Shown: positions 44,721 to 63,511, numbered from the stretch's first letter. The stretch: 64,000 bases of DNA from Moniliella sp. 'wahieum' (GCA_003971905.1 RSEE01000044.1:372001-436000), one strand, 5' to 3'. The notes: a model not told the origin generated them from the letters alone. A program made the numbers and translations.

Positions 44721-47700
44721 TCACACCAGCTCTCGTGGTCTACTCCTCCGCCACACCCTCCCATCGCCCAGTTCGTCTGCCAACGCGTCCACCAAGCCCT
44801 GCAGCTCGGTCTGGTCCATGGTGGGGTCGCTGCACACAATGCCTACCGACAGCACGCTGTGTCGAAGGGCGACATCGATCGTGACTGAAGGCTGAACCGG
44901 TGGTGCGGCATCCTCCGGCCAGTCGATCGCCGTTCGACCAGGCATGGGCGGCTGCGTAGTGTAGAATCCAGTGTCGCGTCCGAGCGCATAGGGGCGAAGC
45001 AGCTCATCTGCCTGTCGTTCGGGCCCAGCGCCATGCGGAAGAAGTAGGTTGAGCGTGACGTCCGTTTGTGCTGGGGAGGTGACCTGTGCCTGTCCCAGCT
45101 GGGCATGGGCAACGAGTGCGCGTTGGATCGTGTCAAGTCCTTCTTCCTCCTTCTCCACACCAAACGAGAGGCGGGTGAGCAATGGTGGTGAACCCAGCTA
45201 GGCCATCTAGCCCCTCAAACCCACACGCCCGTCCTGAGGCTAGGAACCGCAGTGTCGGATGGGTAGTGTGGGTATGCGCAGCGAGCACTTTTCCTACCAC
45301 AAAGGTAATTAGATGTGCGAGTCCTACTCCGTACGCCCGACTGACCCGCTCCAACCCGCTCACATCCTCCGACAGCACACCACGCACAAGTACTTGGCCA
45401 TCTGCTTGGCCTGGAGAAGAACGGCAGACCAGCGTGTCTTCTGCCCCTGCCAGCAGAGTCAAATAGGAAGACACGGCATTGGGATCGATCGATCGCAAAG
45501 CATAGTCCACAAAGTCGGTCCACCGTGCCGGCGGCGGAAGCGCAAGGCAGTTCGTACCGCCCAAGATCGCACTGAGTTCCCGAGCTAGCATGCGGATCGT
45601 TGGAGGGTCGTACTGCGCGTGGTGGGCAGTGAACAGGATCAGGTCGCCTTGGGGCTGGAGAGGTGCGTGAGCCGTCGGGGGAAGAGAAAAAGTCAGTGGG
45701 AGTAGCGTTGAGGTGGAGCATCTGATCAAATGCAGCTTCAGCACGATCCCGATCTGAAGGTACCACCACTCTCTCCACTGCTCGATGCCACACACCAGGC
45801 GCCAACACCACCTGAACCAACTTGCCATCGGGGTGCGCACAAACGTGCTCCGCAACACTTGATGCCGGTCCCGCACTGTCCTCCACGCTTGCTCCACCAG
45901 ATCGGGGTCCAACTCAACCCCGCTGTCCCATACAAAGGTAGCTTCCATAAACCGGCGCTGCCGAAGCACAAACTCGTCCAGCGTCAGAGCTTGACGAGGC
46001 AACGTGGGCACCACGGCCTCGACCAACTCGGCGTCTAGGCCAAGCACGTCCAGTGCTGCACCCTGCTGAACGTCCTCCACCAATACTGTTCCCCCTGTAC
46101 TGGGGCCTGGACCGTCCGAGTCATACGCGCCACCGTGCGTGCGAGTAGATCGTGGGGTGTGATCAATAGGCCGTGGGCACGAGCTTGGAATGCAACTGCA
46201 ATGGCCAACAATGAGTCGAGGCCTAGGAGAAAGAGATTGGTGCAAGAGCAAACTGTGTCCTGCGATACTTGCAGCTTGGCCGACAGGGCACTGGTCACGA
46301 TTGCCCTCTCGGTGTCGGTCAAGGCCTGGCGGCCAGGACCAAGGTCGTTGTAACCTCCGCTCAGCAGGATGCAGAGGCAGGTGGGCTAGTCCCTCTGGGA
46401 ACGCGCCAGCAGGACGGTGGGGATGAGAAAGAAGGTCTTCAATCGTCTTTGCGAGGTCATCCGCCGCTTCCGTCATGCACCCTTGTGGTGCACCAAGCCG
46501 GATGCGCATCCATCAGCATCGAGCACGACCGATACGTTGATGGGATACTCTGATGCCGCTTCGGCTGTTTCGGTGGTAGGATGAGGCGCACGGGTCCACA
46601 CGTCGTCATTGGCGTTGGGACGCGCTTCCGTCGCGTTGTGGAAGACAAGCAACGTGTCAAACAAATTGGCAAAGCCAGTCTGTGCCCGCCACCAAGCCAA
46701 TATGGCACTCAAGGGCGCATGATCATACGCTTGCGCTTGACGGAGATGCTGCTGAACTTGCTGCAGGCACTCTAGGTTGGACTGTACAGTCTCCAGTGCG
46801 ATACGAACGGGAACCGTGTTGATCAAGGGACCAGAGACGTCCTCTACTTGCACCCGGGTACGGAGAAAAAGCGTCCAGCAACAACTTGGCCAAAACAGAC
46901 GTCCCGTCTGCCTAGGACCTTGGCCAGCACTTTGGCCCAGGCTAGCTGAGTAACAGCTTGAAGGGACACTTGCTGGTTCTGGAAGCAATTTGGGTTAGTA
47001 CGTTGATGAAATGCTTAAGAAGGTAAGAAGGAGAACAGACGTACCTTCACATGGCCTTGAATCTCACTCAGAGGCATCGTCAGGCGACGCTCGGTTACTG
47101 TGTACCCAGTCTCTCCCGCCGCCACGACAGAGGCAGAGGAGCAACCATGGAGCGTCTGCGTCCAGTGACTGACAGCACTCTCCGTTTGCTCGTGAAGATA
47201 GGTCGCCACAACAGAGAAGGCCGTCCGAGCGGGGATCGATTCCCTTAGATACAAGAGACGCAAATCGCCAAAGAGAGCTGGAAGGGATACACCGTCATAC
47301 AAGGCAGATGCATGGACAAGACCAAATAAGATCCCCTTCCTCCTCGTCCTCCATCACCCTCGCTCTCCACGGGGGGTTGCCAACTGCGCCGGTGCCTCAA
47401 AGGAGAGGCTGTGAGGAACATGGGAGAGCGTGCCCACAACCCGTTCCAATTGGGGACCGGTTGGAAAGACGTGCGCCTGCCAAGTAGTGCTGAGCGAGAA
47501 ACCCGTGCGTGAATGTCCCGAGCAGCCACCAGTTGGTCCACAGCGCGACCCAGCTGGTCTACCTTCACCTCGGGCGAAGGCGCACAATGTGGTGGTGAAC
47601 ATAAAGGTCGTGATTGGGAGACGCCAAGGTTCCGTTCAACATACCCGCTTGAAGTGGGGTGCACGGATAGGAGGCAGGGACCAGCACCCGACCGGTTGGA

Positions 47701-62000: not shown

Positions 62001-63511
62001 GCATGGGCATCATTTTCTCCTGTTTCTCCATCTGTTCAGCTACCACTTTGCACAACAAAATGCTCAGCCGCATCCTCCATGCGCCCTTTTCCTTTTTCGA
62101 TACGACGCCCCAAGGGCGCGTCACGCACCGCTTCTCCAAAGATGTGGATACACTCGATAATCTGATCGGGGACATGTCGCGAATGCTGATTGGCACCATT
62201 GTTCAAGTGGTGGGCTCATTGTGCTGATTGCAGTCCTGACTCCTTACTTTTTGCTTGCTGTGGCGATCGTGGTATCCATCTACCTCTTCATCGCGCTGTA
62301 TTATCGTTCCACAGCACGGGAGGTGCGTCGCGTCGACGCCGTTCTTCGCTCCAACATGCACGAGCACTTTTCCGAGGCGCTCAACGGGGTGAACACTATC
62401 CGTGCCTATGGTCAAATCGACCAGTTTATCGCCGAAAACTGTAAACGGATCGACCGTGAGAACCGGGCGTACTGGCTCTCTCAAGTCTGCCAGCGCTGGC
62501 TTTCCATCCGTCTGGACTTTTTAGGATCGCTTCTCGTCTTTGCCGTGGCGCTCTTATCGTCTGGCATGCGCTTTTCCATGACCCGGTCAGTCGGGCGTGG
62601 CTCTGTCCTACATTATGACCGCACAGAGCTTGTTTGGCTGGGTCATCCGTCACTCGGCCGAATTGGAAAACAACATGTCGGCCGTAGAGCGTGTGGTTCA
62701 CTATGCCACCCAAGTCGAGCAGGAACAGCCGTACCATCTCCCCGAGGTTGACGACCACCTCGCTCCCACCTGGCCTAGCACAGGCGAAATCACTTTTGAA
62801 CATGTCGATGCGCAGTACAAGACGGGAACACGCAAGGTCCTTGACGACCTTACCCTTCACATTCGTCCGGGGAGAAGGTGGGCTTTGTAGGCCGCACGGG
62901 CGCGGGCAAATCGACCCTGGTCACCCTCTTGCTCCGCACACTCGAGCTGGCAGGCGGTAAGATCGTGATTGACGGAGTGGACATTTCCACCATGGGTCTG
63001 CACCGTTTGCGAAGCAGTTTGACCTGATCCCTCAGGATGCAGTTATCTACTCGGGCAGCTGCGGTACAACCTCGATCCGTTAGGGGAGTACGACGATGCA
63101 CGACTGTGGGACGCGCTGCATCGGACGTCGCTTTCCGAGCTCAGCCTCGACATGGACATTTCCGAAGAAGGCGGTAACTTATCTGCTGGCCAGCGCTCGC
63201 TCATCTCCATTGCTCGTGCTATGATTCGCAGAACGAGAATCTGTATCTTGGACGAAGCCACAGCATCGATTGACCAGGAAACCGACCGCAAGATCCAAAG
63301 TTTGATCGAAACTAGCTTTGACGGTATCACCACCTTGACCGTCGCACATCGTATCCAAACCATTGTTCATTACGACCGCGTCTGTGTCCTGGACCAAGGT
63401 CGTATTGTCGAGTTCGCTCCCCCCGCTCAGCTGTACCAAGACCCCAACTCCATCTTCCACGCTTTGTGCGTCGCAGCTGACCTGCATTTCGAAAAGGGCG
63501 AGTGGATCTAA
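59087..63511 (+). CDS. fer6: ABCC/MRP-type full-size ABC exporter (Fer6/Yor1-like)
   Basis: [27 protein letters not shown]1; NBD1 [43 protein letters not shown]2 [22 protein letters not shown]2 [33 protein letters not shown]. Intron near 59685-59780. Symbol assigned from cluster context. Confidence 0.93.

Follow-up and report, generated by a model that had tools for sequence, protein, structure and literature searches.

What does a siderophore synthetase with a single adenylation domain make when its neighbors resemble the tailoring and export genes of ferrichrome A biosynthesis? The question is raised by a stretch of 64,000 nucleotides (the window) from Moniliella sp. 'wahieum' (GCA_003971905.1, RSEE01000044.1:372001-436000). 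Between positions 44721 and 63511, the window contains genes for a nonribosomal peptide synthetase (NRPS), an enoyl-CoA hydratase, an acyltransferase of the N5-hydroxyornithine type, and an ABCC-type ATP-binding cassette (ABC) transporter. These very probably represent a basidiomycete cluster for the biosynthesis and export of a hydroxamate siderophore, with a synthetase that descends from the lineage of Fer3, the ferrichrome A synthetase. The explanation favored as a whole is that a cluster with a shortened synthetase of the Fer3 lineage makes a trimer of methylglutaconyl-hydroxyornithine that is free of glycine (Gly) and serine (Ser), and this we regard as probable, though by no wide measure.

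The four genes are as follows. Domains of the synthetase are abbreviated A (adenylation), T (carrier), and C (condensation), and ORF stands for open reading frame.

44721..51743, minus strand: NRPS of about 2,320 codons, an apparently vestigial half C domain followed by A-T-C-T-C-T-C (Pfam on ORF pieces, frameshift-aware alignment to the related proteins P0001 and P0033, collinearity with Fer3)
54484..55457, plus strand: enoyl-CoA hydratase resembling AUH (methylglutaconyl-CoA hydratase), ECH_1 family, with a putative Fer4-like role
about 55950..57300, minus strand: N5-hydroxyornithine-type acyltransferase of the Acetyltransf_8 family, identified through phmmer relatives, ATG at 57300, 3' end approximate, with a putative Fer5-like role
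59392..63511, plus strand: full-size ABCC-type ABC transporter (Pfam pieces and PDB matches), true start upstream at about 58.9-59.3 kb, a putative exporter

The order is that of two divergent pairs, NRPS (-) with hydratase (+) and acyltransferase (-) with transporter (+). An earlier reading of this DNA by sequence alone (the sequence-only reading) had proposed the same four genes, order, and pairs, and they were found again at about those coordinates. It had also seen a resemblance of the neighbors of the synthetase to the ferrichrome A (fer) genes for tailoring and export, and Pfam, PDB, and homologue matches bear this out. The fer cluster of Ustilago maydis contains Fer3, the enoyl-CoA hydratase Fer4, the acylase Fer5, the transporters Fer6 and Fer7, and Fer8 (PMC10098057; PMC13208730). 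In the ferrichrome A route described there, Hcs1 makes 3-hydroxy-3-methylglutaryl-CoA (HMG-CoA), Fer4 converts it, Fer5 acylates hydroxyornithine, and Fer3 carries out the assembly (PMC10098057; PMC13208730).

Domain organization of the synthetase

Long open frames are absent from the region, and the minus-strand coding signal between 44.7 and 51.8 kb hops from frame to frame. Small insertions and deletions (indels) break the reading frames of all four genes, in the NRPS about once every 170-200 nucleotides. Because such errors extend across the whole window, gene calls in it need frameshift-aware methods. The NRPS was read through as a conceptual protein with an X at each frame break. It has 2,343 positions, from an ATG at 51743 to a stop codon at 44723-44721.

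Of the 20 stop-to-stop pieces of the minus strand at 44.7-51.8 kb, nine have Pfam matches. From 51.7 kb downward, their order is AMP-binding, PP-binding, Condensation (two pieces), PP-binding (two pieces), Condensation, PP-binding, and Condensation. The conceptual protein contains one set of A-domain motifs, three carrier serine motifs, and three HHxxxD-type C-domain motifs, the middle one interrupted. The parts of the gene, all on the minus strand, are listed from the N-terminus.

51095..51743, minus strand: probable vestigial C-terminal lobe of a condensation domain, about 211 N-terminal residues without HHxxxD (hhalign, fold search)
49542..51092, minus strand: the single adenylation domain (Pfam AMP-binding, A-domain motifs)
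49275..49485, minus strand: carrier domain T1 (Pfam PP-binding, E 2.5e-8), GFDSL serine motif at 49413
47962..49198, minus strand: condensation domain C1 (Pfam Condensation pieces), HHALYD at 48834
47726..47923, minus strand: carrier domain T2 (Pfam PP-binding split across two frames), GIDSI at 47842
46417..47673, minus strand: condensation domain C2 (Pfam Condensation, E 2.2e-10), His motif cut by a frame break near 47306; it houses the intron
46979..47044, minus strand: intron of 66 nucleotides, canonical (GTACGT...TACTAAC...CAG), read directly from the sequence
46143..46350, minus strand: carrier domain T3 (Pfam PP-binding, E 1.4e-5), GLDSL at 46221
44763..46102, minus strand: terminal condensation domain C3 (Pfam Condensation), HHAQYD at 45622, aligned to the last C domain of Fer3

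This is the layout A-T-C-T-C-T-C that the sequence-only reading had given, and the Pfam order and motifs agree with it. That reading expected no further A-T-C modules upstream of 51743. None came to light: tblastn with the N-terminal half of Fer3 found no second A domain anywhere in the window, and two relatives share the short N-terminus. These are the closest relatives of the synthetase, P0001 (1,616 amino acids) and P0002 (1,612 amino acids), both uninterrupted ORFs. P0002 starts at the same methionine, and both ORFs stop just past the position of the intron (47044-46979).

Ferrichrome synthetases have been divided into types that are architectures, with Fer3 as type II and with a single A-T-C followed by T-C repeats as type VI (Bushley et al., 2008; PMC2644324). 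The window has the type VI layout. It does not have the layout of SidD and NPS6, A-T-C-dA-T-C with a degenerate second A domain (dA), since its one A domain is followed by three T-C pairs and no dA. It also departs from the A-T-C-A-T-C-A-T-C-T-C-T-C of Fer3, which has three A domains in about 4,800 amino acids, and retains the last of these A domains only, in about 2,320 codons. In a protein atlas, the N-terminal piece of the window resembles fragments with AMP-binding and Condensation domains, which is noted here as a lead only.

Descent from the Fer3 lineage

The synthetase can be placed by what its longer relatives are. When the A-T part of P0001 was compared with proteins of more than 2,828 amino acids, the top matches were proteins annotated as ferrichrome A siderophore peptide synthetases, of about 4,850 amino acids, from Moesziomyces aphidis, Ustilago trichophora, and Sporisorium reilianum, with 56-58% identity. 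Residues 209-2341 of the conceptual protein align in one piece to residues 2576-4851 of a Fer3 orthologue of 4,858 residues (P0152), with 40.9% identity. This span is the third A domain (A3) and all that comes after it, and it ends within 7 residues of the end of Fer3. The Fer3 orthologues in the set have 4,744-4,858 amino acids; four of them gave three A segments, and the other two gave only two that passed the length filter.

Identity to the A domain of P0001 falls in steps. It is 77.5% for the window, 59-61% for Fer3-A3, 48% for the long form of Violaceomyces, 44-45% for three one-A proteins (P0052, P0055, and P0073), 43-44% for SidC-A3, and 27-31% for the first and second A domains (A1 and A2) of Fer3. 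In an A-domain tree of 59 rows, the window, P0001, and P0002 form a clade with a support of 100 in the Shimodaira-Hasegawa-like approximate likelihood ratio test (SH-aLRT). This clade nests in a clade of 13 rows (SH-aLRT 99) that otherwise contains Fer3-A3, P0035 of Thecaphora frezii, and P0033 of Ustilago loliicola. The A domain of the window thus belongs to the A3 group, as in the NPS1/SidC lineage, and the groups formed by A1 and A2 of Fer3 and SidC are separate from it. A tree of 18 rows, built from the A domain to the protein end, has the order Violaceomyces long form, window clade, Thecaphora, and U. loliicola with four Fer3. Support for its Fer3-type clade is 100. By identity, collinearity, and both trees, the synthetase groups with the Fer3 of Ustilaginaceae to the exclusion of SidC-type and other enzymes. 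Going by the NRPS phylogeny only, the source organism would probably be a smut-like fungus of the Ustilaginomycotina, from outside the Ustilaginaceae.

The A-domain phylogeny that the sequence-only reading had called for was run with Fer3-A3 and SidC-type rows, and it places the window inside the Fer3-A3 clade (99, and 100 in the tree of 18 rows). That reading had seen the locus as a hybrid of fer tailoring and export genes with a synthetase of the CsNPS2 type. The fer-like neighbors and the layout hold up. The origin of the synthetase does not, as collinearity, clade, and the vestigial lobe all point to the Fer3 lineage.

Several proteins were considered as further short forms or as outside comparisons. 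The next-nearest A domains were at one point taken to be SidD/NPS6-like, and this was rejected: in the proteins with two A domains the second one is A3-like, and these are partial synthetases of the ferrichrome type. P0034 (2,303 amino acids) was rejected as a short form, as it nests among the Fer3 of Ustilaginaceae, lies on a contig of 8.7 kb, and is probably a fragment. P0033 (2,333 amino acids) could be a true short form, or its gene model may have been split. Proteins of Aspergillus melleus, A. violaceofuscus, and Penicillium hordei (P0120, P0129, and P0135) have 2,245-2,684 amino acids and a single detected A domain in the A3 group. A Pfam scan of P0120 gave one A, three T, and three C domains.

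Because P0001 and P0002 have the same short N-terminus, as by alignment does the Thecaphora frezii protein, the short synthetase is to all appearances a small family and not a one-off.

The N-terminal vestige

About 211 residues precede the A domain, and these have no Pfam match. A profile of this part (window, P0001, P0002, and P0035) matches the C-terminal part of the C domain that precedes A3 in Fer3 and SidC, with an hhalign probability of 97.9 and an E-value of 5.4e-13 over 67 columns. An AlphaFold model of the first 380 residues of the NRPS was compared with 48,161 chains in a fold search that is independent of Foldseek. The 24 best-ranked chains are all NRPS condensation-type domains (Z 10.1-11.6), fitted with a root-mean-square deviation (rmsd) of 3.3-3.9 Å over 133-150 residues, except that ranks 23 and 24 have an rmsd of 21.0 and 8.3 Å. 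Residues of about 24-193 in the model match C-terminal lobes. In stand-alone C domains these are, for example, residues 231-437 of 446 in 4jn3 and 208-431 of 431 in 8f7f. The best Foldseek matches are NRPS C-A structures.

Within the clade of the window, the vestige is 38-46% identical, compared with 72-80% for the A domain and 60-71% for C1, and it evolves faster than A, T1, and C1. Judging from profile and model, this stretch is a vestigial half condensation domain, the apparent leftover of the C domain before A3 of Fer3. A Fer3-like ancestor, to judge from alignments and fold, was cut inside its second condensation domain and lost its first two modules, which in Fer3 load Gly and Ser. In this view the NRPS is a shortened member of the Fer3 lineage and came to the type VI layout by convergence.

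Comparison with known synthetases

With Fer3 and its cluster, the window shares a collinear C-terminal part (A3-T-C-T-C-T-C), the clade, and the families of hydratase, acyltransferase, and ABC transporter. It differs in that A1-T-C-A2-T is missing, along with the N-terminal lobe of the C domain that follows, and no Gly or Ser could be added. It also differs in the A domain itself, where identity to Fer3-A3 is just 59-61%.

The type VI enzymes share the architecture of the window's synthetase. These are Cpf1 of Coprinopsis, for coprinoferrin, and CsNPS2 of Ceriporiopsis, for basidioferrin. CsNPS2 and Cpf1 have been described as the most truncated form, with the tri-Orn region only, so that loss of the N-terminus is shared with the window in the published view (bioRxiv 10.1101/2022.10.10.511241). 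Acetyl- and hexanoyl-hydroxyornithine are the units that they trimerize (bioRxiv 10.1101/2022.10.10.511241; PMC12617850). Known members thus have an N5-acyl-N5-hydroxyornithine trimer as their product, and such a product is predicted for the window. The published type VI A domain, that of Coprinopsis (CC1G04210), groups with Sid2-A3 (PMC2644324), whereas the window groups with Fer3-A3, and it is this published grouping that sets the two apart. As Fer3 (type II) differs from Sid2 (type I) in print, the position of the window in the Fer3-A3 clade points to a descent separate from that of CC1G04210/Cpf1 and CsNPS2. In the known type VI clusters, those of Agaricomycetes, the NRPS and an ornithine monooxygenase form the core pair, and the acyl groups are acetyl or hexanoyl (PMC12617850), while the window has a hydratase and no monooxygenase among its scanned pieces. 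A literature search gave no mention of a short Fer3 in the titles and opening lines of abstracts that it covered.

Related loci were sought in metagenomes. With the acyltransferase alignment, 44 loci were found; eight of these have an ABCC-like gene upstream on the opposite strand, and five have an NRPS downstream. A scan with the NRPS alignment gave 268 pattern matches, none of which was confirmed. Five loci (L003, L006, L008, L009, and L015) are intron-rich and have the order ABCC transporter (-), Acetyltransf_8 acyltransferase (+), and NRPS (+). In L006, where most of the NRPS gene is present, its product contains a single A domain and can be aligned collinearly with proteins of the layout A-T-C-T-C-T-C. 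The metagenome loci thus resemble the window in an acyltransferase of this family adjoining a divergent ABCC-like transporter. They differ in the NRPS, which is about 24-35% identical to P0001, Fer3, SidC, and other queries and forms a distant clade of its own; these NRPSs may be of the mushroom coprinoferrin or basidioferrin type. A hydratase was found at none of the 44 loci at E<=1e-6. The hydratase therefore sets the cluster of the window apart and ties it to the fer type.

In Aspergillus fumigatus, the acyl-hydroxyornithine of fusarinine is made with a crotonase-family hydratase (SidH) and an Acetyltransf_8-type transferase (SidF). The synthetase of that pathway, SidD, is a short NRPS with one active A domain that trimerizes acyl-hydroxyornithine, and in this it resembles the synthetase predicted here. 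SidD has the layout A-T-C-dA-T-C and makes ester-linked trimers (bioRxiv 10.1101/2022.10.10.511241). The window differs from it in that its three T-C pairs are homologues of the part of Fer3 that forms amide bonds, and it has no degenerate A domain.

Tailoring and export genes

ECH_1 was detected in three of the 88 ORF pieces, at 54.5-55.5 kb on the plus strand, with the gene spread over three or more frames. Among the structures matched by these pieces, human methylglutaconyl-CoA hydratase (1hzd) takes the first rank for one, the second for another, and the third for the last; the pieces cover, in that order, residues 68-123, 206-271, and 115-163 of the 1hzd chain. The crotonase glutamate contexts GGGLE and PEVKLG are visible in the ORF text.

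The ORF pieces of the acyltransferase have no Pfam match (0 of 9), even at E<=10. The piece at 56783-56007 has 32 relatives in a phmmer search of the full library, with a best E-value of 3.6e-29 and 12 at E<=1e-10. Thirteen of the 32 were scanned, and all 13 contain PF13523 (Acetyltransf_8). Frameshift-aware alignment spans 57272-55955 with 10-15 frame shifts. In it, residues 3-359 of P0271 correspond to 57272-56191, and residues 221-424 of P0276 correspond to 56540-55955, with 107 of 209 positions identical.

ABC_membrane or ABC_tran was detected in five of the 88 ORF pieces, at 60.1-63.5 kb on the plus strand. All 60 PDB matches listed are ABCC proteins. The gene is collinear over 59392-63469 with metagenome ABC genes that adjoin acyltransferases (L006, L009, and L014), and it has about nine frame changes between 59.4 and 63.5 kb.

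Substrate and predicted product

The residues of the substrate pocket were read from one alignment. They are DVSSIVAIMK in the window and in P0001, DVASIVAIMK in P0002, and DVSSVVAIMK in the Thecaphora protein. All 11 Fer3-type A3 rows have DVSSLVAIMK, and the SidC-type A3 rows have DV[LA]SLVAIGK or DPLSMVAIGK. The window is identical to Fer3-A3 at nine of the ten positions, with one change from Leu to Ile. Several pocket positions have been singled out as related to specificity (PMC2644324). This match is the best sequence argument that a ferrichrome A-type acyl-hydroxyornithine would be the substrate of the A domain.

A possible pathway can be outlined. The hydratase would dehydrate HMG-CoA to methylglutaconyl-CoA, and the acyltransferase would transfer the methylglutaconyl group to N5-hydroxyornithine. 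The single A domain would activate the acylated hydroxyornithine and load it on its own carrier domain and on the two downstream. A comparable loading is described for SidC, where A3 loads T3, T4, and T5 (bioRxiv 10.1101/2022.10.10.511241). C1 and C2 would form two peptide bonds and C3 would release the product, most likely a linear trimer, which the ABCC transporter would export. We infer the acyl group, the loading pattern, the mode of release, the export role, and the product, the last because of the NRPS layout, the pocket residues, and the neighboring genes. The layout argues against ferrichrome A, a hexapeptide with Gly and two Ser, as there are no modules for these residues. A Gly/Ser-free trimer of methylglutaconyl-hydroxyornithine, similar to basidiochrome, may well be the product, with the balance about level for and against. 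By our own arithmetic, linear tri(methylglutaconyl-hydroxyornithine) is C33H50N6O16, with a neutral mass of about 786.33 and an [M+H]+ of about 787.34; this corresponds to desferri-ferrichrome A from which Ser-Ser-Gly has been taken away and to which one water has been added.

Des(diserylglycyl)ferrirhodin (DDF) is, as its name says, ferrirhodin without Ser-Ser-Gly, and it is a second compound of interest here. It has been reported as a hydroxamate siderophore of Agaricus bisporus (PMC8152254). Basidiochrome is listed among the linear trishydroxamates of basidiomycetes (PMC13462969) and is described as carrying a carboxylic-acid motif like that of ferrichrome A (PMC10054941). One cited title calls it 'tripodal'. 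Both compounds differ from the case studied here in their producers, which are Agaricomycetes (Ceratobasidium/Rhizoctonia for basidiochrome) or Aspergillus and not smut-like fungi. No gene cluster assigned to basidiochrome or DDF was found in those parts of the literature that the search covered. A link of A. melleus P0120 to the DDF of its relative Aspergillus ochraceus is a guess.

A number of points weigh against the favored explanation. The hydratase matches AUH barely better than other crotonases, and another hydratase ranks first for two of its three pieces. A hydratase like AUH could equally serve an anhydromevalonyl pathway. The likeness to the fer cluster, with an NRPS, a hydratase, a hydroxyornithine acyltransferase, and a transporter, holds at the level of families only. 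The columns of the pocket were set by motif anchors (FDxS, the strand before PPS/PPT, GGE, NxYGPTE, and GKxD). The model of the vestige is poor, with a mean predicted local distance difference test score (pLDDT) of 45.4 and values of 55-79 for residues of about 45-188. The four short forms are not one clade in the best tree, which implies two truncations or an error in the tree; forcing them to be monophyletic costs 9.5 log-likelihood units and is not rejected (P 0.22 in the approximately unbiased test). One in-frame stop is left in the A domain of the conceptual protein, near 50116, where the alignment is poor. Finally, no ornithine monooxygenase and no HMG-CoA synthase was found among the scanned ORF pieces of the window, where frame breaks lower the sensitivity; these steps must then be encoded elsewhere.

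The alternative that survives best is the same cluster with a different acyl group, anhydromevalonyl or another, so that the product would be a trimer like DDF or of some other kind. We consider this unlikely, yet it is the most serious competitor. Crotonase-family hydratases serve both routes, and for two of the three hydratase pieces a hydratase other than AUH ranks first. Gly/Ser-free anhydromevalonyl trimers (DDF) are reported from Agaricus (PMC8152254) and Aspergillus ochraceus, and type VI enzymes take acetyl and hexanoyl groups (PMC12617850). What speaks for methylglutaconyl is the pocket, whose nine shared residues include the Met at position 331 that has no counterpart in the SidC-type A3, together with the position of the NRPS inside the Fer3 clade. 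In addition, the mevalonate route needs an acyl-CoA ligase, and no such second AMP-binding gene was found in the window, although it may lie elsewhere.

Other explanations of the short synthetase

The favored explanation has a shortened synthetase that works alone. Gly and Ser might instead be added in trans by a separate gene, in which case a ferrichrome A-type hexapeptide would still be the product. The genome could contain a second NRPS outside the window, and for SidC it has been considered that one synthetase molecule might load another in trans (bioRxiv 10.1101/2022.10.10.511241). Such a split synthetase is improbable. The break lies inside a condensation domain and leaves a C-terminal lobe without the His motif, which offers no natural docking point, and this lobe evolves faster than the A domain (38-46% compared with 72-80% identity). 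No NRPS gene with Gly/Ser modules was found within the 64 kb of the window by tblastn with the N-terminal half of Fer3.

The frame breaks raise the further possibility that the locus is the decaying remnant of a ferrichrome A cluster. The breaks are many. When P0001 is the reference, frameshift-aware alignment counts 28 frame shifts in 4.7 kb, and with P0033 it counts 35 in 6.4 kb. The conceptual NRPS also has one or two in-frame stops, the second of which falls within the intron, and the density of breaks is even higher in the acyltransferase, with 10-15 in about 1.1 kb. However, genes with housekeeping functions far from the cluster are broken in a like manner. A KTR-type mannosyltransferase (5085-6543, plus strand), an ABC1 kinase (7970-9648, minus strand), and PEX1 (10338-13685, plus strand) are each split over overlapping ORFs in different frames inside one Pfam domain. 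The NRPS breaks are also skewed. Single-base losses make up 19 of the 28 frame shifts, and 22 of the 28 lie near homopolymers where 15.3 would be expected (P 0.005). The window is collinear with P0001 without extra DNA where the frames change. The catalytic motifs are kept, and in P0001 and P0002, which have this short N-terminus too, no break interrupts the ORFs of about 1,610 codons. Since the distant housekeeping genes are broken likewise, we read the frame breaks as indel noise of the assembly and not as gene decay, which makes a dying cluster very unlikely. The sequence-only reading had advised that the assembly be polished, and the housekeeping genes and homopolymers agree with that advice.

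A mis-assembly, by which an otherwise ordinary Fer3 gene would have been stripped of its first two modules, is the weakest alternative and hardly credible: the assembly is rich in errors and NRPS modules are repetitive, but a sharp junction in conserved sequence would then be expected, and what was found instead is a diverged lobe that can be aligned with P0001, P0002, and the Thecaphora protein, with P0002 starting at exactly the same methionine.

Surroundings of the cluster

The G+C content of 2-kb segments of the region is 51-72%, and the DNA looks fungal. Between the NRPS and the hydratase is a long intergenic region.

51744..54483, strand not assigned: divergent intergenic region between NRPS and hydratase, 2.74 kb, no NRPS remnants

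Its ORF pieces have no Pfam match, and tblastn with the N-terminal half of Fer3 gave no match in it. Two WGATAR sites, 62 nucleotides apart, are found there at 53044-53111. ATCWGATAA, which we take to be an extended consensus for GATA factors, occurs once, at 53103, where 0.4 would be expected; at least one site was present in 29 of 100 shuffles, so this is not above chance. The density of WGATAR in the two divergent promoters is not above that of the window. In the intergenic region between acyltransferase and transporter, a heptamer tandem repeat (ATGATGC, 7.9 copies) is present at 57873-57927, and smaller CATG-rich repeats are present at 58129-58171.

Beyond the transporter the window ends after 489 nucleotides, and neither Fer7 nor Fer8 was seen within it. 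No tRNA genes were found. Just past the 3' end of the NRPS is an ORF piece with a CBS domain (42195-42773, plus strand), which is probably unrelated to the cluster. Further on, the 2 kb at 40001-42000 have a G+C content of 71.8%, compared with 51-65% elsewhere in the window. The long ORFs of this segment, on both strands, have no convincing Pfam match, with only a weak match to Nop14.

Significance

The general picture of siderophore biosynthesis would be left unchanged, as truncated type VI enzymes and the Fer4 and Fer5 tailoring steps are already known. A broader proposal can be put forward tentatively, and it falls somewhat short of an even chance. It is that the Gly/Ser modules were cut off inside a C domain in a smut-like Fer3 lineage, in one or more events separate from the origin of the mushroom type VI enzymes, and that this gave a dedicated tri(methylglutaconyl-hydroxyornithine) pathway, the first cluster assignable to a compound of the basidiochrome type. 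At least four lineages would have retained the half C domain, which may cap the A domain structurally.

If the favored explanation is true, the locus and its relatives P0001, P0002, and the hypothetical protein of Thecaphora frezii would provide a link from gene to compound for carboxylate-bearing linear trishydroxamates, which have no gene cluster in the literature searched. They would represent a second, separate route from a hexapeptide ferrichrome synthetase to a trimerizing enzyme. They would also be a natural experiment in which a single A domain has three carrier domains to serve and the remaining assembly line is gone.

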